Below are positions 28,798-48,567 of a DNA stretch of 64,000 bases, piece after piece. This stretch comes from an uncultured Planctomycetota bacterium (GTDB lineage: Bacteria; Planctomycetota; Planctomycetia; Isosphaerales; Isosphaeraceae). How positions within the stretch are numbered: position 1 is the stretch's first letter; each line of letters begins with the position of its first letter. The stretch covers positions 800,001-864,000 of the forward strand of contig CAWGMQ010000007.1 of NCBI GenBank assembly GCA_963823665.1, written 5' to 3'. The position numbers and the translations under genes were made by a program. The notes under the pieces are model-generated. The model was not told the origin of the DNA. It ran no database searches and worked only from the letters and a program-made list of their open reading frames with translations.

Positions 28798-31700
28798 TCA
28801 ATCCGGATTGCCCGCCAGAACGAACGCAGCCCAATAGTGGGGCGACGCATACGGCCGCTCGGTGTCGCCGCCGGGCGGAATCGCCGCCGCGGGCGTGCGG
28901 GCCTTGCTCCCTTTGCCACGCTCGACGCCTCCTCCTGATAGCTCCGCGGTCAGCGCGAGCGCCTCATCGCGGCGCAGACCACGCAACCACGTCTTCGCCT
29001 CTCGCAGCGCCTCGGCCTTCGGCATCGGAGCATCGAGCCCCTTCCTCTTTCCCAGCAAATTGGCATAGAAACGCTGCATGAGCAAGGCCGTAGCCGTGTC
29101 GTCCACCTTCCAGAGCGACAAACACACGCTCCGCGCGCAGAGATCAACAGCGCCTGCGTGAATCCTACGAACCCCTCTCCGCCGAGATCGCGTCCCAGCG
29201 CCGTCTCGCACGCCGAAAGCGTGACCATTTCGGCCTTCAAGTCCCAATCATGCTGAATTTCGCGCACCAACAGCCGGCCGTCGAACACCGGCTTGTTGGC
29301 CAGAGCCTGCTCGAGTGGGTCAGGCAGGCCCGTTTGAGCCAGGATTATAGCGGAACGAGTGGGCCTATCTTCATCGATCACGCCGTGAGTTGCCAGATGG
29401 ATGAAGCCGTATCTCTCCAGCTCGCCGGAGGTGGCGAGGCGGTCCAGCTCGGGCTCGCTCGCCTCTGTTTCGAGGAGGGTCCGGACTGGCCGATCATCCA
29501 ACTTGAAGAGTCGCGCAAGTGCTTCGATCTCGTATCGCGTCCCCGGAAGCGGGGCGAAATCCTCGTCGCCACTCCGTGCTGCGACGAGCACCTTCTTCAT
29601 CGAGCGGTTCGCGGCGATCGCTTCGGGTGCAGGCCGCGCGTCGATCAACACGCCGAGCTTGCCAGGCGGCAGGCCTCGCTTGGAAGATCGTCCGTCTCGC
29701 CATACTTCCACGACGATCGGTTCTCCGCCTCCGTCGATGACTTTGAGATCCTCGATCTTGTTCAATTTCAGGCCGTTGTAGGCCAGCAAGACATCACCGG
29801 CCTTGAAGCCGTTTTTCGCAGCGCTGGACCCTGGCGCCACGACATTGACGAGGAGGCCATGATCCGGAACCGGCCCCGGATCGCTCGACTTCTCTGGTCG
29901 CTCGTAGACCGGGTCGCCCAGAGCCAACAGGCCCGCACGGCGGACTGGCCGCGTTTGCTCGCGCAGATACTTGAACACCGTCCCCGACGGGGCGTAACTC
30001 ACTACCCGCGTGTCACCGCGGTCGAGCAGCGCCTCGACCGGAATGCCCCTCATCGAATGCGAAGGAAGGACAATCACCGTGCGAGTTGTCGCTCCCAGGG
30101 CTTGCGCGAGCGGCTCGAGTCGCTGAACACGGAGCTTCTCGAGCAGCGGTAGCAAGTCGGAAGAGGTACCTCCTGGCGTCTTGCGCAGCTCTGCCCGAAC
30201 GCGATCCGCGAGCGCGTTATCACCCTTGGTCCAGAGCCCGTTCGGACCAGTCCCGACGATTGGCACCCATGCAGGAACTCCTTCCGGTCGGACGACCACA
30301 CCCCAATGATCGCCGTCGGGATCAGCCGCATTCGGGCCGCGTGGCGCATTATCGACCCAGGAGATCAGGGCAGCATCGGCAGGCAGCGCGGATTGGATCT
30401 TGCTCAGCCTGGCAACCTCGCCCGCGAGCGCACCGTGATCTTTGGCTAGCTTCGTCTGGAACTCACCCAGAGCAATGCTGGCCAGCTCGCGCTCGCGCTT
30501 CAAGTCTTCAAATCGCTTTGCTCTCTCGGTCTGATCAAGGCCTTTGGGCGTTGCTTCCACCAGCCGATCGAGCCGTTCCAGCTCGGTCGTCAGTGCGCGT
30601 AGACGGAGGCGCTCCTCGGGGTTGAGACGGCTGTCATCGCGGGCGGCCAAATCGTCGAGCAACCCGCGGCCGAGTTCTTCTTCAAGCGCCTGCCAGGCCT
30701 CGGCGGGCTGACCGAGCCTGGCAAGCACCGCCGCGAGGGCACGACCCACGGAGCACCGAGCCCCCGCGCGTTCTAGTCCGGTGAACGCAACAAGCCGCCG
30801 CGCCGCGTCCAGGCTCGTCACGGCGCGAATCCAATGCTCGCGCGCTTCAGTGTATTTCCCCTGCGCAGCGAGATTCAATGCCAGCAGGCCCAAGCCAGTG
30901 CCAGTATCCGGGTGGTCGTCTCCCAGCAACTGGAGCTGAATACTCAGCGCCTTCTCGTATAACGGCTGGGCCTGCGCGTACCGCCCTTGGGTGTCGTGGA
31001 TTGACGCCAGATTCTTATAGCTTAGCGCGGTTTCCGGGTGGTCATCGGTAAGCAGCCGGCGACGGATCTGAAGCGCCTTCTCGTAAAGCGGCTGGGCCTG
31101 CGTGTACTTCCCCTGGGCGTCGAGGTTCGCCGCCAGATTGTTGTAGCTTCGTGCGGTGTCAGGATGGTCATCAGTGAAAAGTTGACGGTATATTTCCAGC
31201 GACTTCTCTAACAGGGGCTGGGACTGGATGTACTTCCTCTGGTCGTTGAGAGTTATCGCCAGGTTGTTGAGGCTCAGGGCGGTGTCGGGGTGCGCGTCGG
31301 TAAGTAGACGGCGACGGATTTCCAGCGCCTTCTCATACAGCGCCTGGGCCTGGGCGTACGTCCCCTGGGCATTCAAGTTACGCGCCAGGTTGTTGTAGCC
31401 CGTTGCGACGGTGGGGTGGGCCTCGGTGAGAAGACGACGGTTGATCTCCAACGCCTTCTCGCAAAGCGGCTGGGCCTGGGCATACCTGCCCTGAGAATTC
31501 AGATTGTATGCCACGTTGTTAAAGCTCAGCGCGGTGTCGGGGTGGGCGTCGGTGAGAAGACGGCGACGAATCTCGAGCGCCTTCTCAAGCAGCGGCTGAG
31601 CCTGGGCAAGTTTACCCTGTTGACTGAGGTTCATCCCGACGTTGTTAAAGCTGGCCGCGGTGAAGCGGTGGTTGTCGGTAAGCAAACGTCGGAGGATCTC

Positions 31701-32522
31701 CAGCCCCTTCTCGTAGAACGGCTGAGCCTCGGCGTATTTTCCCTGCGCGTTGAGGTTGACCGCCACATTGTTATAGCTTTCTGCGGTGGCGAAATGTTCG
31801 TCCGTGAGCAGGCGGCGGCGAATCTCAAGCGCTTGCTCGAGGAGTCGCGCGGCCTGGGCGTACTTCCCTTGCGCATGAAGGTTGGTTCCGATGCTGTTGT
31901 AAGTTTCGGCGGTGTCCGGGTGATTCTCGGTAAGCAAGTGGCGGCGGATTTCCAGCGCCTTCTCGTACAGGGCCTCAGCCTCGGTGTACCTCGCCTGGGC
32001 GTTCAGATTGATCGCCAGATCATTGTAGCGTGCTGCGGTGGTGGGATTTTCGTCTGTAAACAGGCGCCTTAGAATATCCAGGGCCTGCTCAAAAAGTGGC
32101 TGGGCTTCCGCGTACTTCCCCTTCCTGTGCAACGCCACGGCCTGCTGATGGATTGTCTGGCTCGACACGACGATCGCGCGATCCTCCTTCGACATCGCAG
32201 CCGTCCGCCGTAGCGAGCGGAGACGGAATTCTTCGGTTACTGTTTCAAAGTGCTTCGCTCCCAGCACTCGCGACCGCAGCTCGAGTAATTCCTCTCCCCG
32301 CGCGATCACCTCGTCCCAGCGATCCGACTCAATCGCGGCGCCGATCGTTCTCTCCAACTCCTCCGCCCGTTTGTAGTCCTCGCCGGTCAGCTTCCGCGCG
32401 CCGGCGACCGCAGACTGCGAGTCCTTGGGAGTTGCCGTTTGGGCGTGCGAACTCGATGCCAGAACCACGCCCGCGAGATTGATCAACAGCCCAATTGAAA
32501 CCGCAGTGCGACAAGCCGTCAT
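28798..32522 (-). CDS. Signal peptide-TPR-CHAT (caspase-like) protease with PDZ-like insert, copy 1; frameshift at ~29138
   Basis: Signal 'MTACRTAVSIGLL...SSSHA|Q'; ten 42-aa TPRs; 'IHLATHG' and 'VTLSACET' His/Cys dyad; 'YASPHYWAAFVLAG' end. One C is missing relative to copy 2. Confidence 0.88.
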
Positions 32523-32553
32523 GTGGAACCTCATCAACGATGCGGAAATTCGA

Positions 32554-35500
32554 TCAATCCGGATTGCCCGCCAGAACGAACGCAGCCCAATAGTGCGGCG
32601 ACGCATACGGCCGCTCGGTGTCGCCGCCGGGCGGAATCGCCGCCGCGGGCGTGCGGGCCTTGCTCCCCTTGCCACGCTCGACGCCTCCTGATAGCTCGGC
32701 GGTCAGCGCGAGCGCCTCATCGCGGCGCAGACCACGCAACCACGTCTTCGCCTCTCGCAGCGCCTCGGCCTTCGGCATCGGAGCATCGAGCCCCTTCCTC
32801 TTTCCCAGCAAATTGGCATAGAAACGCTGCATGAGCAAGGCCGTAGCCGTGTCGTCCACCTTCCAGAGCGACAAGCACACGCTCCGCGCGCCAGAGATCA
32901 ACAGCGCCTGCGTGAACCCCACGAACCCCTCTCCGCCGAGATCGCGTCCCAGCGCCGTCTCGCACGCCGAAAGCGTGACCATTTCGGCCTTCAAGTCCCA
33001 ATCATGCTGAATTTCGCGCACCGACAGCCGGCCGTCGAACACCGGTTTGTTCTGGATCGCCTGCTCGAGCGGGTCGGGCAATCCGGCCTGAGTCAGGATC
33101 ACTGCCGAGCGCGCGGGTTGGTCTTCGTCGATCACACCGTGGGTGGCCAAATGGATAAAGCCGTACTTCCGAAGCTCACGCGAAGCCGCAATACGCTCCA
33201 GTTCCGGCTCGCTCGCGCCGGCTCCGAGCATGATCCGGGTGGGCCGACCATCCGAATTGAATAGCTGCGCGAGCGACTCGACCTCATACCGTGTGCCTGG
33301 CAAGGGCGGCAACGCCTCCCCGCCGCCACGCGCCGCAACCAGCATCTTTTGAACTGCGCGATGCGCAGCGATCGCCTCGCGAGCCGGCCGCGAATCCAGC
33401 ACCACGCCGAGTTTGCCCGGCTCCACATCACACCGCGATGACTTGCCATCCCTCCAGAAGTCGACTCCGATCGATTTGTTGCCATCCGCGACGACCTTGA
33501 GGTCGTCCTTGACCTTGAGCGCCAATCCATTATAGGCCAGCAGCACGTCTCCCGCTTTCAGGCCGTGCATGGCGGCGTTGGAACGGGGCATTGCCACGTT
33601 GACCAGCAGGCCGTGATCAGGCAACGGTTCCGGATCGCTCGAGGGCTGCGGTTGCTCGTACAGCGGATCGCCGAGCGCCAGCAGTCCCGCATGGCGGTCA
33701 GCCCGAGGCTGCTCTCGGAGGTACTTGAACACCGTGGCTGACGGGGCATAGCTCACCGTCCGGAAGTCATCGAGGGCAAAGAGCGCCTCGATCGGCACAC
33801 CCGCGAGCATATAGGAAGGAAGGATAACCAGCCGGCGGGTTGCCGTGCCCAGGGCCTTTGCCAGCGGATCGAGCCGTTGAGCGCGTAGTTTCGCGAGCAT
33901 GGGTTGAAGGATCGATGCGCCAGCCGGCGCGTTCTTGCGAAGTTCCGTCCTGACACGCTGCGAGAGAGCAACGTCGTCGTCGCTCCATAGCCCGTCCTTA
34001 CCGGTCCCGGTGATTGAGATCCATTCCGGAACGCCTTGAGACCGAACGACCACGCCCCAGTGCTCGCCGCCGGAGTCGGCCGCCGTCGGGCCGAATGGCC
34101 GAATATCCACCCAGGCAACCAGGACGGTGTCGGCCGGCAACGCGGCCTGGATCTCGCTCAGCTTGGCGACCTTCCCCGCCACCGAATCATGCTTCTCGAC
34201 AAGTTTCGTCTGGAATTCACCCAGAGCAACGCTGGCCAGCTCGCGATTGCGTTTCAAGTCCTCGAACCGTTTTGCCCGCTCGACGTTGTCGAGTCCCTTC
34301 GGGGTGGCCTCCACCAACCGATCGAGGCGATCCAGCTCACTCTTCAGCTCGCGAAGGCGGACCTGGTCCGCGGGGCCGAGGCGCTGGTCCTGCCGCGCGG
34401 CCAATTCGTCAAGCAGCCCTCGGCCCAGGCCTTCCTCCAGCGCTTGCCACGCATCGGCCGGTTGGCCCAACCGGGCGAGTACGGCGGCCAGGCAGAGGCG
34501 CGTCGAATTCTTTGTCCCCGCGCGTTCCAGGCCGCTGAAGGCCAACCCCAATCGAGCCTTATCCAGGCTCTTGGCTGCGCTCATCCATCGGTTCCGCGCT
34601 TCGGTGTATCTCTCCTGAGCCGCCAGGTTGGCTGCCAGGCGATTCAAGCTGATGGCGAGATCCGGGTGATCGTCGCTGAGCACGCGGTGGCGGATCTCGA
34701 GCGCTTTCTCATACAGGGGCTGGGCCTGGGCATACTTGCCCTGTCGCGTGAGGTTCGCCCCCAGGTTCTCGTAGCTTCGGGCGGTGCTTGGGTGGTTGTC
34801 GCCAAGCTGCCGGCGGTGGATCTCGAGCGCCTTCTCATAAAGGGACTGCACCTGGGCGTACTTTCCCTGGGCCGTGAGGTTGTTCGCCAGATTGTTGTAG
34901 CCCAAGGCGGTGTCCGCGTGGTCGTCTGTAAGCAATCTCCGTTTAACTTCCAGGGCCTTTTCCAGGAGCGGCTCCGCCTGGGCGTGCTTCCCCTGCGCCT
35001 CGAGGTTAGTCGCCAAGTTGTTCAAGCTGAGGGCGGTGCTCGGGTGACTATCCGGGAGCGCGCGGCGTTTGATTTCCAGGGCCTTCTCCAGGAGCGGCTC
35101 GGCCTCGGAGTACTTCCCCTGGGCGTTCAAGTTCATTCCGACGTTGTTGTAGCTCAGTGCGGTGTCGGCGTGGTCGTCAGTGAGGAGGCGGCGCTTGATT
35201 ACCAGAGCCTTCTCCAGGAGCGGCAGGGCCTCGGCGTACTTCCCTTGGCGGCTCAGGTTCACTGCCAGAGCGTTGTAGCTGGCGGCGGTGTACGGGTGAT
35301 CGTCCGTGAACGCGCGGCGGTGAATCTCGAGCGCCTTCGCGAAGAGCGGCTGCGCCTCGGCGTACTTTCCTCGATAGGCAAGGTTTGCCGCCAGATTGTT
35401 GAAGCTGATGGCGAGATCCGGGTGGCCATCGGCGAGCAACCGGCGGCGCATCTCGAGCGCCTGTTCAAGCACGGGCTGGGCCTGGGCATGTTTCCCCTGA

Positions 35501-36276
35501 GCGTCGAGATTGGTTCCCAGGTTGTTGTACATTGTGGCACGTAACGGGTTATTCTCAGTGAGCAGCTCGCGGTAGATCTCGAGCGCCTTCTCGAGCAGCG
35601 GCTGGGCCTGAGCACGCTTCCCCTGGGCATTCAAGTTCATCGCCACATTGTTGTAGCTCGCTGCCGTTTCGGAATGGAGGTTGGTGAGCAGGCGGCGGCG
35701 AACCTCGAGCGCCTGCTCGAACAGCGGCTGGGCCTGGGTGTACTTCCCCTGGCCGTTCAAGATCGTCGCCAGGTTGTCCAGCAATTCTGCCGTTTCGGGG
35801 TGCTCGTCGGCGAACAGCCGGCGGTGGATCTCGAGCGCCTTTTCGAGCAGCGGACGAGCCTCGGCGTACTTCCCCTGGCTGCGTAAACTCACCGCCTGTT
35901 GATTCAGGGCGCGGCCGGATGCCAGCAAGGCACGGTCCTCGTTCGACATCGCGGCCGTTCGGCGTATCGATTCGAGACGCCATTTTTCGTTCACCGTTTC
36001 AAAGTGCTTCGGCCCCTGGACGCGCAACCGCAAGGCGAGCAGATCCTCCGAAGGAGCGATCGCCTCGTCCCAGCGATCGGCCTTCAGGGCCGCGTTCACA
36101 GCCTTGTCTAGCTCCTCTGCCCGCGTGGCATTATCACCGGTCAGCTCCCGCAATCCCGCGGTGGGAGGCTGTGCTTCTTTCGGAGACGAGGTCTGGGCCG
36201 ACCCGGGTGAGAACGGAAGCGCGGCGACCAGAGTGATCAACAACCCGAACGAAACCACGTTGCGACAAGCGATCAT
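32554..36276 (-). CDS. Signal peptide-TPR-CHAT protease with PDZ-like insert, copy 2 (intact, 1240 aa)
   Basis: Signal peptide, ten 42-aa TPRs, 'GLLVNVAMPRSNAA.HGLKAGDVLLAYNG', 'IHLATHG', 'LSACETALG', 'SLWKVDD'. Confidence 0.93.
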   Translation of the reverse strand: MIACRNVVSFGLLITLVAALPFSPGSAQTSSPKEAQPPTAGLRELTGDNATRAEELDKAVNAALKADRWDEAIAPSEDLLALRLRVQGPKHFETVNEKWRLESIRRTAAMSNEDRALLASGRALNQQAVSLRSQGKYAEARPLLEKALEIHRRLFADEHPETAELLDNLATILNGQGKYTQAQPLFEQALEVRRRLLTNLHSETAASYNNVAMNLNAQGKRAQAQPLLEKALEIYRELLTENNPLRATMYNNLGTNLDAQGKHAQAQPVLEQALEMRRRLLADGHPDLAISFNNLAANLAYRGKYAEAQPLFAKALEIHRRAFTDDHPYTAASYNALAVNLSRQGKYAEALPLLEKALVIKRRLLTDDHADTALSYNNVGMNLNAQGKYSEAEPLLEKALEIKRRALPDSHPSTALSLNNLATNLEAQGKHAQAEPLLEKALEVKRRLLTDDHADTALGYNNLANNLTAQGKYAQVQSLYEKALEIHRRQLGDNHPSTARSYENLGANLTRQGKYAQAQPLYEKALEIRHRVLSDDHPDLAISLNRLAANLAAQERYTEARNRWMSAAKSLDKARLGLAFSGLERAGTKNSTRLCLAAVLARLGQPADAWQALEEGLGRGLLDELAARQDQRLGPADQVRLRELKSELDRLDRLVEATPKGLDNVERAKRFEDLKRNRELASVALGEFQTKLVEKHDSVAGKVAKLSEIQAALPADTVLVAWVDIRPFGPTAADSGGEHWGVVVRSQGVPEWISITGTGKDGLWSDDDVALSQRVRTELRKNAPAGASILQPMLAKLRAQRLDPLAKALGTATRRLVILPSYMLAGVPIEALFALDDFRTVSYAPSATVFKYLREQPRADRHAGLLALGDPLYEQPQPSSDPEPLPDHGLLVNVAMPRSNAAMHGLKAGDVLLAYNGLALKVKDDLKVVADGNKSIGVDFWRDGKSSRCDVEPGKLGVVLDSRPAREAIAAHRAVQKMLVAARGGGEALPPLPGTRYEVESLAQLFNSDGRPTRIMLGAGASEPELERIAASRELRKYGFIHLATHGVIDEDQPARSAVILTQAGLPDPLEQAIQNKPVFDGRLSVREIQHDWDLKAEMVTLSACETALGRDLGGEGFVGFTQALLISGARSVCLSLWKVDDTATALLMQRFYANLLGKRKGLDAPMPKAEALREAKTWLRGLRRDEALALTAELSGGVERGKGSKARTPAAAIPPGGDTERPYASPHYWAAFVLAGNPD

Positions 36277-36309
36277 CAGGGACCCCTTCGTCGATGTTGA
36301 GAAACTCGG

Positions 36310-39300
36310 TCAATCAGGATCACCAGCGAGTACAAACGCCGCCCAGTAATGGGGCGATTCGTAGGGCCGACCATTGTCGTCAGTGCCGGGGATCGTGGCC
36401 GGCGTCCGGGCCTTGGCGCCCGTGCCGCGCTCGACGCCGCCCGACAGCTCCGCGGTCAGCGCGAGCACCTCAGTGCGGCGTAGCGTGCGCAGCCAGGTCT
36501 TCGATTCGCGGAGGGCCTCGGCCCTGGGCATTGCCGCTTTGAGCCCTTGGCGCTGGCCCAGGAGGTTGGCATAGAACCGCTGCATCAGCAAGGCCGTCGC
36601 TGTGTCGTCGACTTTCCAGAGCGAGAGGCAGACGCTCCGCGGACCTGAAATCAAAAGCGCCTGCGTGAACCCCACAAATCCTTCCCCGCCCTGGTCGCGG
36701 CCCAGCGCTGTCTCGCAGGCCGAGAGCGTCACCAATTCGGCTTTCAATTCCCAGTCATGCTGGATCTCGCGCACGGAAAGACGGCCGTCGAACACGGGCT
36801 TGTTCTTCAATGCCTGCTCCAGCGGGTCCGGCAGGCCGGTCTGGGTCAGGATCACGGCCGAGCGTGATGGGATATCTTCATTGATTACGCCGTGGGTCGC
36901 CAGATGGATGAAGCCGTATTTGCCGAGCTCCCCCGCGGCGGCGATTCGGTTCAGCTCGGGCTCGCGCGCGTCGGTTTCCAGGAACGTGCGCACGGGTCGA
37001 TCAGCGGATTTGAAGAGTTGGGCGAGTGCGTCGACCTCGTATCGTGTGCCTGGGAGCGGGGCGAAGTCTTCATCGCCGCCGCGTGCTGCCACCAGAACTT
37101 TTTGCAGCTTGCGTCCCTCGGCGATCGCCACTGGGGCCGGTCGTGGATCGATCACCACACCGAGCTTGCCGGGAGCCAGGTCTCGCGCGGACAGCCGGCC
37201 GTCGCGCCAAACCTCGACTGCAATCGGCTTGTCGCCTTCATCGATCGTCTTGAGGTCTTCCTTCTTATTCAACTTCACACCGTTGTACGCCAGCAACACA
37301 TCACCCAATTTGAATCCGTGCTTCGCGGCGTTCGAGCCTGGCACCACGACGTTGACCAGCAGCCCGTTGTCCGGCATCGGCGCGGAGTCACTCGACTTGT
37401 CCGGTCGCTCATAGAGCGGGTCGCCCAGAGCGAGCAAACCGGCGTGGCGGTCGGGGTGGGGCTGCTCGCGCAGGTGTTTGTAGACGGTGGCTGAGGGGGC
37501 GTAGCTCACGGTTCTTGTGTCGTCGGGGGCGAGCAGGGCCTCGATGGGAACTCCCGCCATTAAGCGAGAAGGCAGGACGATGAGCCCCCGACACGTCGTC
37601 GTCAAGGCTTTTCCGAGCGGCTCGAGCCGTTGAGTGCGTAGTTTCTGGAGAAGGGCTTGCTGGTCTGGCGAGCCGCCGGCTGGTGTCTTGCGCAACTCGC
37701 TTCGCACACGCCAGGCGAGCGAAACGTCGCCTTCGGTCCACAGCCCATTCGGGCCGGTCCCGGCGATCGGGAGCCAGACCGGAATGCCCTGCGACCGGAC
37801 GACCACGCCCCAGTGCTCGCCATCGGGGTCGGCCGAATTTGGCCCGGTCGGAGGGATGTCGACCCAGGCGACCAGTGCGGTATCGGCGGGCAGCGCGGCC
37901 TGAATCTCGTTCAGAGTGGCGACCTCGCCGGCCAGAGCGCGGTGATCCTTGGCAAGCTTGGTCTGGAATTCACCGAGCGCAATACTGGCCAGCTCGCGCT
38001 GGCGCTTGAGCTCCTTGAACCGCGTCGCGCGCCCGGCCTGGTCAAGGCCTTTGGGGGTGGTTTCCACCAGCCGGTCGAGTCGCTCGAGTGTCGTTGTCAG
38101 CTCGCGAAGGCGGGCTCGCTCCTCGGCGCGAGCCGCCGGTCCTGGCGGGCTGCCAGCTCGTCGAGCAGGCCCCGGCCCAGGTCTTGCTCCAGCATCTGCC
38201 ACGCCTCGGCCGGCTGGCCGAGCCGGGCCAGCACGGCGGCCAAGGCGGGGCGCACAGAACCCGCGTTCACGGCACGCTCGAGCCCGCTGAAGGCGATCCA
38301 GAGCCGGGCTGCGTCCAGGCCGTTGACGGCATGGAGCCATTGGGCGTGCGCCTCCGCGTACTTCCCCTGGGCACTGAGATTGAACGCGACATAACTGAAG
38401 CTGACCGCCGTGTCGGGGTGGTCGTCGGTGAGCAGACGGCGGCGGATCTCCAGTGCCCGTTCGAAAAGCGGCTGGGCCTCCGCGTACTTCCCCTGCTCCG
38501 TCAGATTCGACGCCAAGCTGTCGTAAGCAACGGCGGTATTGGGGTGGTCGTCGGTAAGCAGCCGGTGGTAGAGCTTCAGAGCCTTCTCGAGCGGCGGCTG
38601 GGCCTCGGCGTACTTCCCCTGGGCGCTGAGGTTGCGCCCGACGTTGTTGTAGTTCCCAGCGGTGTCGGGGTGGTCCTCGGTGAGCAGACGGCGGCGGATC
38701 TCCAGTGCCCGTTCGAAAAGCGGCTGGGCTTCCGCGTACTTCCCCTGGGCGGCGAGGTTGGACGCCAGATTGTTATAGCTCGCGGCCGTGTAGGGATGGT
38801 CGTCGGTAAGCAGACGGCGCAAGATCGCGAGTGCCTGCTCGTACAGCGGCTGGGCCTCCGCGAACTTCCCCTGGGCGGCGAGATTGAACGCCAGATTGTT
38901 ATAGCTCAGGGCCGTTTGGGCATGGTCGTCGGTAAGCAGTCGGCGGTGGATCTCCAGCGCCTTTTCGAATAGCGGCTGGGCCTGGGCGTACTTCCCCTGA
39001 GCGTTCAGATTGGTCGCCACGTTGTTGTAGCTTACCGCGGTGGTGGGGTCGTCGTCGGTGAGCAGCAGCCGCTCGATCTCAAGCGCCTTTTCGTGCAGCG
39101 GCTGCGCCTGAGCGTACCGCCCCTGGGAGTTGAGGTTGTACGCCAGGTTGCTGTAGCTGATAGCCGTGTGGGGGTGATCGTCAGTAAGAATGCGCCGGCG
39201 GATCTCCAGGGCTTTCTCGAAGAAGGGCTGCGCCTGGGCATACTTCCCCAGTCCGTTCAGACTTTTGGCCACGCCGCTGTAGCTTATGGCAGTTTGGGGA

Positions 39301-39782
39301 TGGTCGTCGGTGAGCAGACGGCGGTGGATCTCCAGCGCCTCTTCGAATAGCGGCTGGGCCTGGGCGTACTTCCCTTGTGCATAAAGTGCATTGGCTCGCG
39401 AGCTCGATTGATGGGCGGATCGGTAGGCTTCTCGGTCTTCGTTCGACATCACGGCGACGTGTCGCAGTGCCTTGAGAAACCACGCCACATTCACGGTCTC
39501 GAAATGTGCAGGCCCCAGAGCCCGCGCCCGCAGCTCGACCAGTTTGGCGGTCTGCGTGATCGCATCATCCCAGCGATCTGACGCAACCGCCGTGTCGATG
39601 CCCTTGTCCAATTCCTCCGCCCGCTTGGCGTCGTCGCCGGTCAGCTTCCGCAAGCCCATGGCGGCTTGCTGCGCATCCTTCGAGGCCGTTGTCTGCGCCG
39701 TCGCCGGCACGGCGAGGGCCAGGGCTCCGATGACGACCACGATCAGTCGCTTCCATCGCAGCGAAACGTGACGCAGTTTCAT
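36310..39782 (-). CDS. Signal peptide-TPR-CHAT protease with PDZ-like insert, copy 3; frameshift at ~38125
   Basis: ORFs 38097-39782 and 36310-38340 join at 'QDRRLA/ EERARLREL' as in the paralogs; eight 42-aa TPRs; dyad intact. Confidence 0.88.
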
Positions 39783-39876
39783 GGTGTGACTCTCCGTGCT
39801 TCAGGGAGTTCAGGATCCGATTAGTTGCTGTTTACATGCATCTGCGTTTTAGTTTCCAGAATCGCTTGCGCGGAAC

Positions 39877-39899
39877 GTCAGGCTGAAAGCCTGACCTAC
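39877..39899 (-). repeat. GTAG-type REP palindrome
   Basis: Minus strand GTAG-GTCAGGCT-TTC-AGCCTGAC: GTAG tetranucleotide followed by a perfect 8-bp stem, intergenic. Confidence 0.75.
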
Positions 39900-39909
39900 T
39901 GCGGCGACT

Positions 39910-41835
39910 TCAACGGCCCTTGGCCGGCTCTACGGGGAATGCTTCGAGAGTCACAACATCGACGCCGGGCAGGCCGCGGAGCCAGGTGCCCAGCTTGGCG
40001 GCGGGCCCTCCCGAGTCGCGAGCCTTCGCGCCTTTGCCTCGCGTTACGGCGGCGGCTTCGGCCAGCAAGGGCTCGAGACCTTGGCCTTCGTCTCGCCAGA
40101 CGACCCCGGCTTCGCACGGCAGCCTCGCCGACCAGGCCATCTGGCCAACGCGCCGCTTCCACTCGCGATACGGCGGCAGCGGCTGGCGCGACACCACCAG
40201 TGCAAACGCACACAACCCCGCCCCCTCGCTCAGCCGGTACCGGTCGTCGCTCTTCGAAGGCGGAGGATAGACAGGCTGCCGCTTCTTGACAGGCTTCGTC
40301 TCCTCGTCGTCAGGGTCGCAAAGCTGATCCGTCCCGTCGGGACGGAAAGCGATCAGATACGAGTAAGCGGGTTCGGAAAGCTCGGCCTCCACCGTCACGT
40401 CGTCGTCCTCGCGCGCGGCGAACGACGTCCGGCCGAGCACCCCGGATCGTTTGTTGTCGTACTTGTCTTCACCGGCAAGCTTGGCGAAATGCGGGATTTC
40501 GAAGCGCGTCACGCGCAGGCGCGGCGGGCGTCGCTGGTTCCGACGCCGGTTGCTGGCTACTCTTCCCCCGGCCGGCGACTGGCGGGACCGACTCGTCCGG
40601 GTCGCTTCCCGAAGACCTCGGCCACAATGCCCAAGCAGGTACACAGAGCGCGAGCAGCACGGCGAGGGTCCCAAAGAGCGGTGCTGCGCGGCGCACGAGC
40701 AGATATTGGCGCAACGCTAGCCGCAACTCGCCGGCGGACTGGAACCTCGCTCTTGGATCAGCCGCCATGGCCTTCAGACACACCCGCTCGATCGTCCTTG
40801 GGATGCGCGGACTGAGCCGGCGCGGCGGGACGATCGATGCCTCACGGGCCTGTTCAATCGTCTTTTCCACCGTCTTGCCCTCATGCGGCGGCTGCCCGGT
40901 CACCAGGTAGTACAGCACCGCCCCCAGCCCGTAGACGTCCGTGCGAACGTCGACCCGCTCACCCTGCCCGCGAGCCTGCTCCGGCGCCATGTAAGGGGGC
41001 GAGCCCGCCAGCCCATGCAGCGATTCACTGGCAAGCGGCACGGCCAGACCGAAGTCGACCAGCCGCGGCAGACCGTCGTCGCCCAGGATGATGTTCTGCG
41101 GCTTGATGTCACGATGCAGCAGGCCGCAGGCATGCACCTCGGCCAGCCCCTCGGCAACCTGGGCGACCACCTTGGTGCAAAACTCGAAGTCAGCCAGCTC
41201 TGCCGCTGTCACGTCTTTGAGCGTGCGGCCGGGAATGTATTCCACGACAAGGTCAATCTCGTCGCCCTGGATCTCAACTCCGTAGCAGGGCGCCACGAAC
41301 GGGCTGCGGACCCGCGCCAAGGCGCGCCCTTCGCTCAGCACGGCGTCACGGCGCCGCTGGAGGCAACGTCGTGGTAACGCTTGAGAACCACCAGACGCTG
41401 CAACGCTCGGTCGCGCGCCAGGTACGTCGTCGCCTGGCCCCCTTTTCCCAGCATCCGGATCAGCTCGTAGCCCGCGGCCATCGCAGCCGGATTCTGCCCG
41501 GCAGTCACGGTGGCCGTCGCCTGGGGATCGGGTTCGGTGTCCTTCAATCCGTCAAAGACGTCACGGACCGCTTCGGCCCGGTCGGGGAATCGAGCAAGAT
41601 AGGAATCCGACTCCGCGGACCGCCCGGCGCGGCGGGCTAGCTCGATGTCGAGGGCCAGCAACTCGCGGAAGAGGCGACTGCGGCTCGATTCGCCGACCAC
41701 GGCGGCGAGCTCATCCTCGATGCGTCGCGGCCGGCCGGCGTTCAAATCCGCCTCGAACCGGTCGCAAACCGCAATGACTCGCGCCAGGTCGTCCGGCGGC
41801 AGCGAATCGTCGTTGGGTCGGCTCGCCAAAGACAT
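39910..41835 (-). CDS. Membrane Ser/Thr protein kinase with C-terminal DUF4384-like extracytoplasmic domain; frameshifts at ~41345 and ~40540
   Basis: Planctomycete N-terminus 'CDRFEA...LFRELLALDIEL...YLARFP'; 'LGKGGQATTY', 'VVLK', 'HRDIKPQN', 'DFGLA', 'YMAPEQ'; TM 'LFGTLAVLLALCVPAWALW'; 'VTVEAELSEPAYSYLIAFRPDG'. Confidence 0.87.
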
Positions 41836-41959
41836 CCTCAGTAACTCCGTCGTCGCAACAAGGGCGGTGCACGCTTCAAGCTCAGCGTGCACCGCCCCCC
41901 GGTGATAGTTATCGTACAGAAGGCCGCGGGTCGCGGCAAAACAATTCGACCCGCCAGGA

Positions 41960-43656
41960 TCAACCCTGGCGATGGTCCTTCAGACCGCGATCGGCATGCC
42001 GCGGGAGATGCCGGACGGGCATGTGGACTCGCGCCTTGCGCAGCGCTTTCTTCGGTAGCGTCTGGCTGGGGCTCGGACTGACAGGCTGCGGGGTCGCGAC
42101 CGAGGGGCTTGGTGTCGACGGACTCGGGTTCGACGGAGTCGAGACCGACGGCGATCCGGAAGGAGTGCCCGACTGTGCCTTCACCTGCGAAGCCGCGGCG
42201 GTGAGCTCTGTAGTTTCGGCCGCGTTGTTGTACGACACAACGAAGCTCGTTCCTGAACTCAAGAGATTCGACGTGATGTCCTGAACGACGGAACTGGTGC
42301 CGATGTCCAGCGCCTGAGACTGCCAGCTTGAGCTGTTGATCGGGCCCGAGACGCCGTCGATCACGGCCGAACAGTTTGAGAACGTCGTACTTCCGAAGTC
42401 AGCCAGATCCGCGAGCGTACCTCCCTGAAGGGTCGGGGCCTCAACGATCCACTCGGCACAACTTCGCTGGGCGAGCGGGCTCTGGTACTGGGCCGACGTG
42501 ACATAGATGCTGAATGAGTCATTGGCCCTGCTGTTGTCAACGATATACAGGAGATATTGACCCGCATGGGCACCCGAGGTGATGTACTGGACCACGCCGG
42601 TCATCGAATCGCCGGGTTCGACCGTCATCTGAGCGATGGGCTGCTCCGTCTGTCCTTTGCCGGACGAGTACATCTCCCACCATGCGACATAGACTGTCTT
42701 GCCGTTTTCCAGCGCTTCCTGGGTCCCGACTTGCTCCACCGTCCCGTTGCCGTAGCCGTCGATTCCCACCCAGACGGATGAGTCGGTGTTGGCACCCGCT
42801 GGCCCGGTGACCGCGGGAACGATCCACGAGCCGACGACTTCTGTCACCGAATTCGGCTGCGGGCTGGAGAGATTGGCCGCAGCGACGTAACCTGACCAGT
42901 TGTTCATTATCACCACATTCGGGTTCGGGGTCGGCGCAGACGACCCACCGATGTAAAAGAGCTCCAGGCCGTTCGACACATTCTCGAATCCGTAGGGCGT
43001 GGCCGCCGTCGCAGGTGGCGTGCCCGTGCCCGTCCACTCACCGTAGCCTTGCGCCAGCGTGACCAGCGTATCATTGCCGGTCGTCGTCGTCGCGTCGAAG
43101 TAAGTCTGGGGCGTCAGACCGCTCGAATACGTCGTCGAGAAGATCTCAGACTGGCCAGGCGCCTCGGTGTAGAGTGTCCAGGGCGAGGACGGGGTCCACC
43201 TGAAGTCGAATCCAACGGTGTAGCTGCTGTTGTTCGTGATCGACACGACGGCATCGGTCGAGGCCGGCGGGGCGCTGGCGGCACGTAGAAGAGGTTCACG
43301 CCGGTTGCCGTATTCTGGAACTCGTAGAGCTTCGCGGCGGATGCCGGCGCCGTGCCAGTTCCAGACCACTCGTTGTACCCCTGCGCCATCGTGACCACCT
43401 CGTCATTGCCAGGCGAGGTCGTCGGGTTGAAGTAAGCCTGAGGCGTGAGGTTGCTCGAATACGCCGTCGACAAGATCTCACCCTGGCCAGGCGCCTCCGA
43501 AAAGGAGCTCCAGGCCGAGGACGGACTCCAACGGAAGTCGAAGCCCACGTTGTACTTGCTCTCGTTCAGGATCTCCACGACCGCCACCGACATCAGGCAA
43601 CGGTCCTCGACACCCTCGAAATTCGGCCGGAAACGCGGTTTGCTGCGAGTTTTCAT
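41960..43656 (-). CDS. Exported G1-family glutamic endopeptidase with two N-terminal repeats; frameshift at ~43283
   Basis: 'MKTRSKPRFRPNFEGVEDRCLMS' export motif; 'NWSGY', 'WVGIDG', 'EQVGT', 'AWWEMY', 'AEWIVEAP', 'LADFG' (catalytic Gln/Glu motifs of family G1). Confidence 0.88.
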
Positions 43657-43765
43657 CGTTGCGTCCCTCAAGAGTTGTTGGTGCACAGCCGGATGACTGG
43701 TCAATTCCCAAGGGTCAACCGCCAACGGCTCGCACGATGCGCAACGAAATCGGGCGTGGGGACTG

Positions 43766-44542
43766 ATGAACTGGCCCGCGACCCGCGATAAAATGCCAAC
43801 CTACCTGGTGCTTCAGTCCCCGAGATGGAGAACCTTCGTGGACGAGACGAGTTCCCCCGGAGACGACGGAAAGGCTCCGCCGATCGACACGCAGGAGCAC
43901 CCGGCTGGATCAGTCACCCAATGGATCGGCGACCTGAAAACCGGCGACGAGCAAGCAGTCCAGCCGCTGTGGGACCGATATTTCGCCAGCTTGGTCCAGC
44001 GGGCGCGGACGAAGCTGCGCGCGATCCGCAGCTCGACCGCGGTCAACGACGAAGAGGACGTCGCGTTAAGCGCGTTCCAGTCGCTGTATGAGGGTATTCG
44101 TGAAGGCCGATTCCCGCGGCTCGAGGACCGCGACGACCTTTGGCGGCTGCTCGTCCACTTGACCGCGTGCAAGGCCGTGGACCGTCATCGCGCCGAAAAT
44201 CGCCAGAAGCGAGGCGGCGGAAAGGCACTGCGAGAAGTCGACCTGCTCGCGGCCGGCGCCTCGGATCTGGACGAGGCGAACCCGCTCGAGCGGATCGTCG
44301 GCAGCGAGCCGAGCCCGGATTTCGCCGCCATGGTCGCCGAAGAATACGCCCACCGGCTCGACGCACTGGGCGACGCGACGTTGCGCCGGATCGCCGAGCT
44401 CAAGCTGGCGTGCCACAGCAACGACGAAATCCGCCAGCAGCTTGGCTGCTCGCTCCGCAGCGTCACGCTCAAGCTCGAGCTCATCCGAAAGATCTGGCGG
44501 GGCGGAAATCCGAAATCCGAAACGCGAAATCCGAAGGCGTGA
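43766..44542 (+). CDS. ECF-type sigma factor of the planctomycete kinase-associated type (true start may be downstream)
   Basis: 'GSVTQWIGDLK.GD..A...LW.RYF..L...AR', 'DEEDVALSAF', 'GRFP.L.DRDDLWRLL', 'QKRGGG', 'EPSPDFAA', C-terminal HTH. Confidence 0.88.
   Translation: MNWPATRDKMPTYLVLQSPRWRTFVDETSSPGDDGKAPPIDTQEHPAGSVTQWIGDLKTGDEQAVQPLWDRYFASLVQRARTKLRAIRSSTAVNDEEDVALSAFQSLYEGIREGRFPRLEDRDDLWRLLVHLTACKAVDRHRAENRQKRGGGKALREVDLLAAGASDLDEANPLERIVGSEPSPDFAAMVAEEYAHRLDALGDATLRRIAELKLACHSNDEIRQQLGCSLRSVTLKLELIRKIWRGGNPKSETRNPKA
44505..44535 (+). repeat. Heptamer tandem repeat (GAAATCC)x4
   Basis: GAAATCC GAAATCC GAAACGC GAAATCC GAA at the junction of two convergent genes. Confidence 0.8.
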
Positions 44543-44549
44543 ATCTCTC

Positions 44550-46028
44550 TCAGGCCAGAAGCTTCGTGACCACGTTACCGGCAACGTCCGTCAGCCGGAA
44601 GTCCCGGCCCTGGAACCGGAATGTCAGCTTCGTGTGTTCCAGGCCGAGCAGGTGCAGGATCGTGGCCTGGACGTCGTGGATGTGAACGCGGTCGGAGACT
44701 GGGGCGAAACCGAACTCGTCGGTCTCACCCAGGGTGAAACCTGCTTTCACGCCGCCGCCGGCCATCCACATCGTCATCGCGTCGATATGATGGTTGCGGC
44801 CCACCGTTTCGCGAATTTCGCCCATGGGGGTGCGTCCGAATTCGCCGCCCCAGACCACCAGCGTGTTTTCGAGCAGGCCGCGAGATTTCAAGTCCTTGAT
44901 CAGGGCCGCACAGGGCTGATCGATGTCGCGGCAGACCTGGTCCAGGTCGCGCGTCAGCGTCTGGCCGGGAACGCCGTGGTGGTCCCAGTCGGTGTGATAG
45001 AGCTGCACAAATCGCACGCCGCGCTCGACCAGACGGCGGGCGAGCAGGCAGTTGTTGGCAAACGACGCCCTGCCGGGGACCGCGCCGTAGAGATTGAGCG
45101 TCGCGGGTGTCTCCGAGGCGAGGTCGATCAGTTCCGGAGCACTCGTCTGCATCCGCGCTGCGATCTCGTAGGCTGTGATCCGCGTGGCGATCTCAGGATC
45201 GGCCGTCGCATCCAGGCGGGCCTGGTTGAGCGCGACCACCGCGTCGATCGCGCGCCGCTGCTGCGCCGTTGAAATTCCAGGCGGCGTGCTCAGGTTCAAG
45301 ATCGGCTCGCCCCCGCTCCGCAGCGGCACGCCCTGATAGGAAGAGGGCAGGAAACCGCTTCCCCAGTTGACGGCCCCGCCGCGCGGCCCGCGCGAGCCCG
45401 ACTGCAACACCACGAAGCCGGGCAGATCGGCCGACTCGCTGCCGATACCGTAAGTAACCCAGGCGCCCATACTCGGCCGCCCGAACTGCGCTGTGCCGGT
45501 ATTGGCGAAAAGCTTGGCCGGCGCATGATTGAAGACGTCGGTCGCTGCCGATTTCACGATTGCCAGGTCGTCGACAACTTCAGTCATGTGCGGCAAGAGA
45601 TTCGAAACCCACGCACCCGATCCACCGTGCCGGGCGAACGAACGATAAGTTCCCAGCAACCTGGGATGCTCTTTCGTGAACATATCCATGAACGCGAATC
45701 GACGGCCCTGTATGAACGAGTCCGGAATCGGCTGGCCGCTAAATTTCTGAAGCTCCGGCTTGAAGTCGAACAGCTCGAGCTGGCTGGGGCCGCCGGCCAT
45801 GAACAGGTAAATCACGCTCTTCGCCCGCGCCGGGAAATGCCCGGGCCTGGGCGCGAGCGGGTCGCGACTGCGCTCGGCGGCCGACGCCGGCCGGTCGCCG
45901 GCCAAGAGTGTGGATAAAGCAGCCGCGCCCAGCCCAAGGCCACACTCCGCGAAAAAGTGGCGGCGTGTTTTATGATGCAACGCGCGGGCAAGCATCTCTT
46001 CGGCGTTCAAACGGGCGGCCATGGTCAA
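44550..46028 (-). CDS. DUF1501 family protein (Tat-like signal)
   Basis: 'TRRHFF', 'AKSVIYLFMAGGPSQLELFD.KP', 'GRPSMGAW..YG.GS', 'CLLARRLVERGVRFVQ', 'GGEFGRTP'. Confidence 0.93.
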   Translation of the reverse strand: MTMAARLNAEEMLARALHHKTRRHFFAECGLGLGAAALSTLLAGDRPASAAERSRDPLAPRPGHFPARAKSVIYLFMAGGPSQLELFDFKPELQKFSGQPIPDSFIQGRRFAFMDMFTKEHPRLLGTYRSFARHGGSGAWVSNLLPHMTEVVDDLAIVKSAATDVFNHAPAKLFANTGTAQFGRPSMGAWVTYGIGSESADLPGFVVLQSGSRGPRGGAVNWGSGFLPSSYQGVPLRSGGEPILNLSTPPGISTAQQRRAIDAVVALNQARLDATADPEIATRITAYEIAARMQTSAPELIDLASETPATLNLYGAVPGRASFANNCLLARRLVERGVRFVQLYHTDWDHHGVPGQTLTRDLDQVCRDIDQPCAALIKDLKSRGLLENTLVVWGGEFGRTPMGEIRETVGRNHHIDAMTMWMAGGGVKAGFTLGETDEFGFAPVSDRVHIHDVQATILHLLGLEHTKLTFRFQGRDFRLTDVAGNVVTKLLA

Positions 46029-46040
46029 TGACCCTCTTCC

Positions 46041-48567
46041 TTACTCACGCGTGACGAATTCATCAAGATTGAGCAGGACCCGGGCCACCGTGACCCACGG
46101 GGATTTGTCCGACGACGGGCCTGCGCCGGGTGCACTCACCTGGGGGTCCGTTTTCAGCTCGTTGCGCTCCTGCGCAAGCACATTCTCGAGAGTTTTGAGC
46201 TCACCCGCGGAGGCAGGGCGGCCCAGGCAGAGCAAGAAGCGCTCGCTCGAGGCGATCGCGGTCCGTGGCGGGGGCCGGCCGTTCGGCAAGGATGCGCGCG
46301 GCCAGAGCCTGGGCGATCTCGACTGATGCCGGGTCGTTCAGAAGCGTCAGCGCCTGGAGCGGCGTGTTGGATCGCAATCGCCGCGTGCACGACTGCACGC
46401 CGCCGGGAGCGTCGAAGGTCGTCAGGAACGGATGGGGCGTGGCGCGCCAGAAGTAGGTGTAAAGTCCGCGACGAAAGCGGTTCGGGCCGATGTCCGCCAC
46501 CCAGGGACGCTTCATCTGGCCCAGGGTCATCACTCCTTCGGGCTGGGGCGGGAAGACACTCGGGCCGCCAATCTTTGTCGTGAGCAGACCGCTGCACTGT
46601 AACGCCGCGTCTCGAATCAGCTCGGCATCCAGCCGCAGCCGCGATTGCCGCCAGAGCAAGCGGTTGTCGGGATCGACCGCGTGCGCGCCCTTCCGGTGGC
46701 GCGACGACTGGCGATAGGTCGCCGAGCCCACGATCAGCTTGTGGATCCGCTTTTCGTTCCAGCCGCAATCCATCAGCTCGCAAGCGAGCCAATCGAGCAG
46801 CTCGGGATGGCTGGGGTAAGAGCCCTGGGTGCCGAAATCGTTATCGGTCTCCACGAGCCCGCGCCCGAAGTAGACCTGCCAGATCCGGTTGACCACCACA
46901 CGGGCCGTGAGCGGGTTGCGGCGATCGACGAGCCAGCGTGCCAGGTCGAGACGGTCAGGAGGCGTCCCCGGACTCTCGTTCACGAGAGGGGGCAACACAC
47001 GCGGCGCGCCCGGGTCGACGCGGTCGCCCTTGCGCGTGAAGTCGCCTCCCAGGTGGATGTGGGTGGGCCGCGGGGTCCCCTTGTGCTCGCTCACCACCAT
47101 CGTCTTGACGAACTTGGGCTCGGCGGCGCGGAGCTTCACAAGCGATTCAAATTCGGGCCGAAACACGCTGTCTTGCGCCATCAATAGCTCGATGAGCGCA
47201 CTTCGCTGTGCCGTCGACCGCTTTTCGCGCGGCAAATCGAATGCGACCCGCACGTCGGGATCCTGCGCCTGAGTGAACTCGAGTTTGAGCGTCTTCTCCC
47301 AGTTCCGCTCGCGCTCATCCAGGTCGGGGTATTTCCTGGCGAGCACACGATGGAGCTCGTTGATCTGAGCGCGCACCTTGCGCCGGGCTTCGATCTGGCG
47401 CGGACTGGCAAGCTCGAGCTCGGGCTCATCGACATTGTTGAAGAACGCGAAGAGCTGATAATACTCGCGCTGCGATATCGGGTCGTACTTATGATCGTGG
47501 CACTGGGCGCAGCCGACCGTGAGGCCGAGGAAGACCGTACCGGTGGTGTTGACGCGATCGACGATCGAATCGACCCGGAACTGCTCGACGTCGATCCCCC
47601 CCTCCTGGTTGATCAGCGTATTTCGATGAAACCCCGTGGCGATGCGCGGGGCGAAGGCGTCGCCCGGGCAGAGGTCGCCGGCAAGCTGCTCAGTGGCGAA
47701 CCGGTCGAACGGCATGCCGGCATTGATGGCCACGATGACCCAGTCGCGATACTTCCAGATCGAGCGGGGAGCGTCGATGCTGTATCCGTTGGAATCAGCG
47801 TACCGCGCCTGATCGAGCCAGAGCCGCGCCCAGCGCTCGCCGAAGTGAGGCGACTCGAGCAGCCTGTCCACGACTCGCTCGGCCGCACCCGGCGCAGTGT
47901 CGCTCACAAAGGCGTCGACTTCGTCGGGCGAGGGGGGCAAGCCGGTCAAGTCGAGGCTGAGCCTGCGGAGCAAGGTCCGCCGATCGGCTTCGGGCGAGGG
48001 CCGAAGGTGAGCTTCTTCGAGGCGCGACTGAATGAAGGAATCAATGGGGTTGCGAGACCAGCCGGTGCGAGAGAATTTCGGCAATGCCGGATTCGCGGGC
48101 GGCACGAACGCCCAGTGCACCTTGGCCGGCGGCACGCCCGGTTTTTCGCCGGGCTGGGCCTTCGCCCCCTGGTCGATCCAGGCTTCGATGAGCTTGATCT
48201 CGGCCTCCGGTAGCGGCGGCCGGTTGAGGGGCATCCGATCGCCCGCCCCGTCGCCCCTCAGGGCTTCAATCAGTGGGCTCGAAGCGCCTTTGCCGGGCAA
48301 GACCACCGGCCCGCCCTTGCCGCCGGTCATCGCCGCTGCGGCCGTGTCCAGTCGCAGTCCGCCGCGCGGCTTGGCCGCGCCGTGGCAGCTCACGCAATGA
48401 CGGGTCAAGATCGGCTTGATCTGGCTCGTGTAATCAATCGATTTCGGCGGGGATGACGACGGCCCGTCGCCGGCTTTCGCAGCGAGTGCGAAATAAGCGG
48501 CAAAGAGCGCCGGAGCGAGCGAGACCACGGTGAAAAACGCCCCGATTCGAGGGTGCAACTTGCCCAT
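46041..48567 (-). CDS. Planctomycete cytochrome c + DUF1549/DUF1553 (PSD1) protein; frameshift at ~46240
   Basis: 'CVSCHG', 'HWAF', 'LRRLSLDLTGLPP', 'CAQCHDHKYDP', 'PSHPELLDWLA', 'SNTPLQAL.LLN'; end 'VARVLLNLDEFVTRE' lies in another frame. Confidence 0.92.

Follow-up and report, generated by a model that had tools for sequence, protein, structure and literature searches.

This analysis concerns a gene cassette in a 64,000-nucleotide stretch of DNA from an uncultured Planctomycetota bacterium (assembly GCA_963823665.1, contig CAWGMQ010000007.1), which we call the window. The cassette comprises an extracytoplasmic function (ECF) sigma factor, a transmembrane Ser/Thr kinase with a DUF4384-like outer domain, and three paralogous proteases (CHAT1–3), each with an N-terminal leader, a tetratricopeptide repeat (TPR) array and a CHAT domain. 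It recurs in other planctomycete genomes, and its proteases and kinase share an Arg-led peptide which, in the aligned sequences, changes in concert in protease and ectodomain, lineage by lineage. We are highly confident that this module is a functional unit, and we consider it probable that the protease acts on the kinase loop by cleavage. Somewhat more guardedly, we also favour a complete relay, in which the protease cuts the kinase ectodomain at the shared peptide and so switches on the ECF sigma factor.

Recurrence and matched location of the cassette

The original prediction described a transmembrane Ser/Thr kinase with a DUF4384-like outer domain followed by three co-directional TPR-CHAT proteases, and this order is seen on the minus strand from 41835 down to 28798 (kinase, CHAT3, CHAT2, CHAT1), with the glutamic peptidase gene ahead of the kinase in the direction of transcription. 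It also placed an ECF gene about 2 kb upstream. The distance from ECF start to kinase start is indeed 2.0 kb, but the ECF gene is on the opposite (plus) strand, transcribed divergently and outside the operon. The predicted gene set stands as well, but four of the genes are frameshifted, and neither the peptidase in the ECF–kinase gap nor the PDZ domains inserted in the CHATs had been mentioned.

In the host genome (16.5 Mb, 12 contigs), each of the four matches to PF14326 (DUF4384) has a match to PF12770 (CHAT) no more than about 10 kb away, and together they form three cassettes. We surveyed neighbourhoods across Planctomycetota in two ways, calling CHAT, kinase, ECF and C14 caspase genes with profiles built from sequences gathered in this analysis; kin among the loci are not independent. 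The first survey followed the window-type ectodomain family, which has matches in 34 of 121 genomes. It used 40 newly fetched loci chosen by ectodomain alone (12 of 52 candidates were not obtained, and about 10 loci from a CHAT-selected set were left out). A same-strand CHAT gene lies within 6 kb in 32 of the 36 loci with room downstream (23 genomes), and it carries a PDZ domain in 26 of those 32. A kinase domain is present in 35/40 loci and an ECF gene within 5 kb in 30/40 (24 same strand, 6 divergent), with kinase, CHAT and ECF together in 25/36.

The second survey started from PF14326, which matches in 54 of 301 genomes sampled from the phylum, with 79 stretches covering the matches outside the host genome. 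There are 36 kinase-DUF4384 loci in this sample (25 genomes). CHAT accompanies 13 of them, compared with 0.81 expected from per-genome density, and either CHAT or a C14 caspase accompanies 21 (one, L049, is doubtful), compared with 1.27 expected. The neighbourhood conservation that had been predicted is therefore borne out in both surveys. A search for related loci in metagenome contigs and in genome contigs gave no match.

Protease and kinase are also matched in location. Every transmembrane kinase whose partner has an intact N-terminus (18/18) is paired with a leader-bearing protease, and the three soluble kinases (L001, L059 and L064) are all paired with a leaderless one. This count excludes L100, where the contig ends; L133, L139 and a gene of L003, whose starts are in another frame; and a C14 gene at some distance in L106. 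Such matching of location argues that the protease and the DUF4384 domain meet. Leaders were called with a hydropathy heuristic. By this measure, 70 of 80 CHAT homologues with a complete N-terminus have a leader-like stretch, vs 1 of 87 kinase N-termini; among the ten CHATs that fail, six score 1.8–1.97 and four look mis-started. All 93 full-length kinase homologues have a transmembrane helix, so export is predicted across the family.

No third gene recurs near the cassette, the largest non-cassette clusters being found in 5/62 loci. PADLOC (1e-20) matches 3 of 140 neighbour representatives, none of them recurrent (140 of 270 clusters, 62 loci), so an anti-phage island is unsupported among the local neighbours. 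Of the "immunity-like" character first proposed for the system, what stands is the variability of the TPR repeats (see below).

Some individual loci are worth describing. In the host genome, L003 (6659–17180) is a second cassette with an ECF gene, a transmembrane kinase-DUF4384 and two leader-bearing TPR-CHATs without PDZ. A stand-alone DUF4384 gene with a lipoprotein-like leader follows these CHATs, and L163 has a similar stand-alone gene. L001 (10720–19810), also in the same genome, is a cytoplasmic version, in which an ECF gene and a kinase-DUF4384 without a transmembrane helix are accompanied by a GDSL-type hydrolase and by a TPR-CHAT that has no leader. In L133 (10804–13545), ECF, kinase, transmembrane helix and DUF4384 occupy one open frame, which is either a fusion or a frameshift artefact. 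Finally, one genome (G128:C1, 6.13–6.60 Mb) has 33 C14 caspase matches, most within about 0.5 Mb.

Domains and the shared Arg-led peptide

The window kinase keeps its catalytic Lys, catalytic loop, DFG and APE motifs. Among its homologues (93 full-length in the best 120 of 138), 89/93 keep the catalytic loop and DFG. The N-terminal module is conserved, with no anti-sigma match in Pfam or NCBIfam, and the juxtamembrane linker is unconserved. Matches of the kinase to PADLOC PD-T4-6 models were set aside as generic kinase similarity.

The ectodomain scores 21–24 bits against DUF4384 (E 3e-4 to 6e-4), beneath the 27-bit cut-off. Its nearest ESM Atlas clusters are DUF4384 (0.91–0.92), and a profile iterated from it recovers 77 of the 79 PF14326 loci. 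The model is an Ig-like sandwich with a predicted local distance difference test (pLDDT) score of 89, in which residues 149–158 fall under 50. Foldseek gave no match for it, and the best structure comparison reached Z 6.2 (root-mean-square deviation 3.1, 88 aligned). We claim no homology to complement/alpha-2-macroglobulin (bait-region) domains, as Z values up to 6.2 are expected of a common Ig-like fold. A kinase-DUF4384 architecture is also present in Proteo1 (bioRxiv 2025.01.12.632604).

Each of the three CHAT proteins has the N-terminal leader and the intact His and Cys motifs that were predicted for it, with the hydrophobic leader running into an Ala-Gln junction and 8–10 TPR_10 stretches behind it. 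A PDZ domain is inserted within the CHAT region of every one. DegS-RseA is an example of PDZ-gated envelope proteolysis, and the PDZ insert may likewise be a gate. Scores against PF12770 are 192 bits (CHAT2), 189 bits (CHAT3) and 105 + 70 bits (the two CHAT1 pieces), with a cut-off of 24. A model of the CHAT half (pLDDT 79.8; residues 599–613 under 50) matches Csx29 best (8EEY, E 9e-9) and also matches DdvA (E 3e-7) and separase. By sequence and modelled fold, the CHATs thus belong to the CHAT/separase-like clan CD proteases (PF12770), with proteolytic activity predicted. Statistics for CHAT homologues come from the best 120 of 1,701 matches, and the catalytic dyad is kept in 113 of these 120.

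The TPR arrays vary in how many repeats they have and at groove positions within the repeat. CHAT homologue lengths fall on 42-residue steps in 60/82 cases vs 17.6 expected. In a set of 507 repeats, the 42-residue scaffold hardly varies (under 0.7 bits over most of it), but entropy reaches 3.6 bits at positions 7 and 14 and about 2.8–3.1 at positions 4, 17 and 36 (positions 1–6 are biased by the anchor pattern). This is the pattern that a ligand-binding groove under diversification would leave, and such variability supports a sensor role for the arrays. CHAT1–3 share 71–73% DNA identity. The last ~160 residues (~500 nt) of CHAT1 and CHAT2 are 98–100% identical, compared with 59–71% elsewhere, which reads as varied input with a common output. 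The near-identical ends (28798–29300 and 32554–33056) span the catalytic Cys and the peptide loop, and they would reflect either recent gene conversion or an assembly chimera.

The kinase loop and the CHAT C-terminal loop carry one common eight-residue consensus. Its leading Arg is present in 70/71 aligned kinase rows and 74/74 aligned CHAT rows, and both loops are disordered (pLDDT under 50) in otherwise confident models. In a symmetrical test on 44 loci from the phylum, family and own-genome sets, 15 loci placed the cognate protease within the top 5% (two with low absolute scores), and control anchors gave 3/48 (Leu), 2/40 (Glu) and 2/34 (Lys). Top-ranked matches include C14 partners (L065, L069 and L077) and the soluble pair of L064. 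In 29 family pairs (21 genomes), post-Arg identities came to 3.97 of 7 vs 1.91 +/- 0.26 permuted (p<1e-4), even with about five mis-picked peptides, which weaken the signal. Using one locus per motif class (11 classes), p was about 0.005. A single family, and even a single genome, can hold many different motif classes side by side.

The protease and the ectodomain are unrelated in fold, so common descent cannot explain their alike loops. Copying of DNA is also ruled out: at identical peptide residues in 14 hand-picked pairs, codons are identical in 42/87 cases vs 34 expected from codon usage, and this closeness to expectation puts the constraint at the protein level, not the DNA level. Alike loops on unrelated folds imply that one reader recognises both, most simply the protease active site. 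The shared, co-varying peptide therefore lends specific support to the predicted link between protease and ectodomain.

A second near-invariant Arg (73/74 rows) lies in the region of CHAT2 residue 984 (33322–33336), between the PDZ insert, which it closely follows, and the active half of the CHAT domain. Several distant loci have the shared peptide at about this position instead of in the C-terminal loop. We regard this Arg as a candidate self-cleavage site.

The proposed relay, known systems and alternatives

The relay that we favour would run as follows. The variable 42-residue TPR array, perhaps together with the PDZ domain, would bind some envelope peptide or protein as its cue, and the three paralogues would widen the range of cues while sharing a single output specificity. 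The protease's own peptide copy may hold the enzyme off as a pseudo-substrate, or it may be self-cleaved upon activation. The protease would then cut behind the Arg in the DUF4384 loop. This loop is ~190 residues past the transmembrane helix, inside the folded domain and before its last helix and strand, so nicking and rearrangement of the ectodomain would be a likelier outcome of the cut than shedding. The kinase would change state and either phosphorylate or release the ECF sigma factor, which would act at a conserved intergenic element and drive the cassette along with passenger secreted proteins (the G1 peptidase in this case).

A preference of the CHATs for Arg before the cut (P1 = Arg) is suggested by the shared peptide. 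Separase cuts after Arg within unstructured motifs (PMC11506125), and the orthocaspase MaOC1 self-activates at an Arg (PMC7475262).

A wider reading, which we hold only tentatively, takes the cassette as a bacterial receptor kinase system switched on by proteases, in which address codes would be private, cassettes insulated and DUF4384 a general bait. Exported caspase-fold sensors with variable repeats, similar to those of nucleotide-binding leucine-rich repeat (NLR) receptors, would recognise foreign or damage-derived envelope peptides, self-activate at their built-in peptide and then cut the same peptide on the DUF4384 "bait" of their own kinase, with many parallel cassettes per cell kept insulated. 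On this view, presenting substrates to bacterial CHAT and C14 proteases would be the general role of DUF4384, and sequence alone would be enough to locate the cleavage sites.

The relay would be of a known kind, i.e., protease-gated transmembrane control of an ECF sigma factor, and its added feature would be a cleavage-site code held in both enzyme and receptor. For most bacterial TPR-CHAT proteases, substrate and trigger are not known; here a predicted substrate, scissile bond and specificity code can be named for a family of more than 1,700 protein clusters, which brings the question within reach of a test on a pair of purified domains and one point mutant. If true, DUF4384 gains a function, the upstream input of some planctomycete ECF–kinase pairs is explained, and Craspase, DdvA and the PCaspase cluster join a wider family of protease-to-sigma relays. 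Orthogonal protease–peptide pairs would also be possible parts for engineered signalling.

The premise that characterised CHAT proteases are cytoplasmic proved wrong: a TPR-CHAT of the periplasm has already been characterised, namely DdvA of Myxococcus xanthus (PMC11506125; PDB 8ROT, 8RW5), which removes any claim that none was known. Like the cassette, DdvA-DdvS links an extracytoplasmic TPR-CHAT that has a His-Cys dyad with an ECF sigma factor on the other side of the inner membrane; its signal is proposed to be sensed by the TPRs, and the folds match. However, DdvA is a single polypeptide (zinc anti-sigma domain, transmembrane segment and TPR-CHAT) proposed to self-cleave its juxtamembrane linker before RseP acts, whereas the window has a separate exported protease that starts with a leader and has no anti-sigma domain, occurs in up to three paralogues and carries a PDZ insert, and the transducer is a kinase with DUF4384. 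DdvA controls a defence island (CRISPR and the cyclic-oligonucleotide-based system CBASS), but no defence island recurs among the local neighbours of window-type loci. The accessible text of PMC11506125 contains no mention of planctomycetes or a signal peptide and one irrelevant mention of a kinase.

Two cytoplasmic systems are also alike in part. In type III-E Craspase (Csx29, Csx30, Csx31, RpoE), a TPR-CHAT cuts a partner that is encoded next to it and that controls an ECF sigma factor, and one group of C-terminal domains of Csx30, the Csx29 substrate, is DUF4384 (bioRxiv 2022.08.17.504292). Craspase differs in being RNA-triggered via Cas7-11, in having an anti-sigma substrate cut in a linker and in lacking a kinase; no Cas family matches in the window (36 open reading frames with Pfam, 9 with PADLOC), where the DUF4384 carrier is the kinase. 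The SAVED-CHAT/PCaspase cluster combines caspase-fold proteases with both a Ser/Thr kinase and a sigma factor, and proteolytic kinase activation has been hypothesised for it (bioRxiv 2023.06.23.546230). It is, however, triggered by the cyclic nucleotide cA3 via SAVED and linked to CRISPR/CBASS, and the accessible text describes no transmembrane kinase, TPR array or shared peptide. No SAVED domain was matched in the Pfam scan of the 36 window open reading frames, and the window CHATs bear leaders.

On the sigma factor side, ECF43 (EcfP/PknT and EcfK/PknS) and the predicted planctomycete groups ECF59, 61, 62 and 217 have a single-pass Ser/Thr kinase as their neighbour and no gene for an anti-sigma factor (PMC7826278, PMC8999054), and window-type loci share this arrangement with ECF59/61/62/217. 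ECF43, whose activation by phosphorylation is proven, lacks the acidic sigma-2.2 motif, whereas the window ECF keeps it, with a Ser a few residues downstream; other kinase-linked ECF groups retain the acidic motif with a Ser/Thr nearby (PMC8999054). In the accessible part of PMC7826278, neither CHAT nor DUF4384 is named in the descriptions of ECF59–62, the one group noted to have CHAT neighbours is actinobacterial ECF54 (with no kinase), and kinases (ECF59–62), CHAT (ECF54) and DUF4384 (ECF25 anti-sigmas) are not joined together. That of PMC11032199 has no mention of CHAT or caspase. In Xanthomonas, a periplasmic protease is reported to alter the output of the membrane receptor kinase VgrS (PMC6237974), but both VgrS and DegS-RseA involve unrelated protease and kinase classes and no dedicated co-varying recognition peptide. 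In the literature searched (subscription journals and bioRxiv supplements were beyond its scope), we found no description of the cassette or the peptide.

Several points weigh against the cleavage relay. Support for the mechanism is computational. Among the 36 phylum loci, 15 have no protease in the examined stretch (some end at contig edges) and only 10 have an ECF gene (the ECF profile may miss some). The cognate protease falls outside the top 5% in 29/44 loci, the family-pair patterns were written after viewing the loci and are hence not blind (the 44-locus test is symmetrical), and the 11 motif classes are a tree-free count and are not taken as independent events. The window ECF retains its acidic motif, and partner ECFs elsewhere are of other subfamilies. 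Arg specificity is not general for CHAT, given that Craspases cut after Met or Leu (PMC11506125). Finally, frameshifts break the window's own copy of the cassette as assembled.

A loop that captures the protease would account for the shared peptide just as well. The DUF4384 loop would dock in the active site and restrain the protease (or be cut and stay bound), the kinase would read occupancy or clustering, and stand-alone exported DUF4384 proteins would be threshold-setting decoys. Stand-alone, leader-bearing DUF4384 genes do lie behind the CHATs in L003 and L163, 20 of the 41 non-kinase DUF4384 loci (among 77 phylum loci) are by or in a protease, and PCi both inhibits PCaspase and is cleaved by it (bioRxiv 2023.06.23.546230). 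However, the conserved dyad and a near-invariant Arg in a disordered loop look substrate-like, and an inhibitor needs no active kinase, yet nearly all kinase homologues keep their catalytic motifs. We think capture unlikely.

It is more doubtful still that, however the family behaves in other genomes, the window copy is a cluster of decaying pseudogenes. Among the six genes, only CHAT2 and the ECF gene are unbroken, and the other four carry five single-base frameshifts, but the rpoB gene of the same assembly is likewise split (L140, near ~1400), and other long-contig genomes show a similar pattern. The window breaks bring no in-frame stops and leave all catalytic and peptide residues in place; the one in CHAT1, for example, is one G lost from a GG relative to CHAT2. 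As rpoB is broken too and intact relatives are abundant, we read the frameshifts as probably assembly errors. Four soil-metagenome contig sets were also aligned, with no indel among the pieces listed, none of the 32 listed spanning a frameshift.

Intramembrane proteolysis of the DdvA type is improbable. The CHAT cut would then be a site-1 cut, RseP would cut the transmembrane helix and the ECF sigma factor would be freed from the N-terminal module, with ECF phosphorylation not the switch. DdvA itself is a precedent (PMC11506125), single-pass ECF25 anti-sigma factors can carry DUF4384 (PMC7826278 supplement), the window ECF retains its acidic motif, and a conserved N-terminal module lies ahead of the kinase domain. 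But a cut in the loop, so far past the helix and inside a folded domain, would leave the membrane anchor covered, the juxtamembrane linker is unconserved, the kinase motifs are conserved, and the N-terminal module has no anti-sigma match in Pfam or NCBIfam.

Very unlikely, finally, is a tripwire for outside proteolysis, in which a foreign or host Arg-specific protease activates the CHAT by cutting its loop and also cuts the loop of the kinase, while the CHAT acts on other targets: it would equally yield matching peptides in two unrelated proteins, and trypsin-PDZ genes lie near two loci (L003 and L160), but no third gene recurs, the soluble L064 pair keeps matched peptides beyond the reach of outside proteases, and the many motif classes within one family and single genomes suit private pairing.

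The ECF–kinase gap and the surroundings of the cassette

Orthologues of the window ECF (69–77% identity) lie divergently beside the kinase in seven other genomes, which rules out an inversion of the ECF and peptidase block in this genome. Its 14 own-genome paralogues are 37–53% identical. It may resemble ECF59.

The secreted peptidase (Pfam A4/G1 match, E 2e-30) fills the gap between the ECF and kinase genes. It has no homologue in any other fetched locus, so it is ruled out as a core part of the cassette, and it is an insertion into the intergenic region. In L144 (3286–5477), a different secreted protein with a planctomycete-type leader motif occupies the same slot. Both inserted proteins lie downstream of the conserved DNA element, and a second short conserved element stays ahead of the kinase (~41911–41917 in the window). 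Scans for sigma-70 promoters and terminators gave chance-level results.

Table 1. Positions of the cassette genes and their parts in the window
Feature	Position	Strand	Remarks
CHAT1	28798..32522	-	leader, 42-residue TPR array, CHAT with PDZ insert (~29649-29858); frameshift near 29140
CHAT2	32554..36276	-	intact, 1240 residues, leader-TPR-CHAT(PDZ)
CHAT2 His motif	33136-33153	-	
CHAT2 Cys motif	32956-32973	-	
CHAT2 PDZ	~33403-33612	-	
CHAT3	36310..39782	-	leader-TPR-CHAT(PDZ); frameshift near 38130
Single-pass Hanks-type Ser/Thr kinase	39910..41835	-	~100-residue N-terminal helical module, kinase domain, transmembrane helix, linker, ectodomain; frameshifts near 41350 and 40520
Kinase transmembrane helix	40622-40678	-	
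DUF4384-like ectodomain	39913-40518	-	
Arg-led peptide, disordered loop of kinase ectodomain	40018..40044	-	predicted cleavage or bait site
Matching Arg-led peptide, disordered C-terminal loop of CHAT2	32653..32679	-	Arg in 74/74 aligned rows
Arg-led peptide copy, CHAT1	28897-28923	-	
Arg-led peptide copy, CHAT3	36406-36432	-	
Secreted glutamic peptidase (family A4/G1)	41960..43656	-	planctomycete-type N-terminal leader motif; frameshift near 43265
Conserved bipartite DNA element, ECF-side intergenic	43715..43744	not assigned	candidate promoter, aligned in 8/8 orthologous regions
ECF sigma factor	43838..44542	+	PF07638, E 8e-33; open reading frame opens at 43766, probable GTG start at 43838

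Named homologues are from Isosphaerales/Isosphaeraceae. Next to the cassette, at 44550–48831, are DUF1501 and PSCyt1/PSCyt2/PSD1 genes, which also adjoin it in L120, L142, L147 and L178, i.e., the cassette holds a stable chromosomal position across genera. On the other side, 2.5 kb from CHAT1, is the gene of a TIR/SEFIR-TM-TPR protein (TM, transmembrane; 24934–26316, plus strand), the first 165 residues of which match PADLOC bSEFIR (E 1e-57); this gene is not a recurrent neighbour in related loci. Further away (48–22927, plus strand) is a very large surface protein region with Ig-like (Big_3_5) and NHL repeats, and its split into five open reading frames probably comes from the same indel errors.

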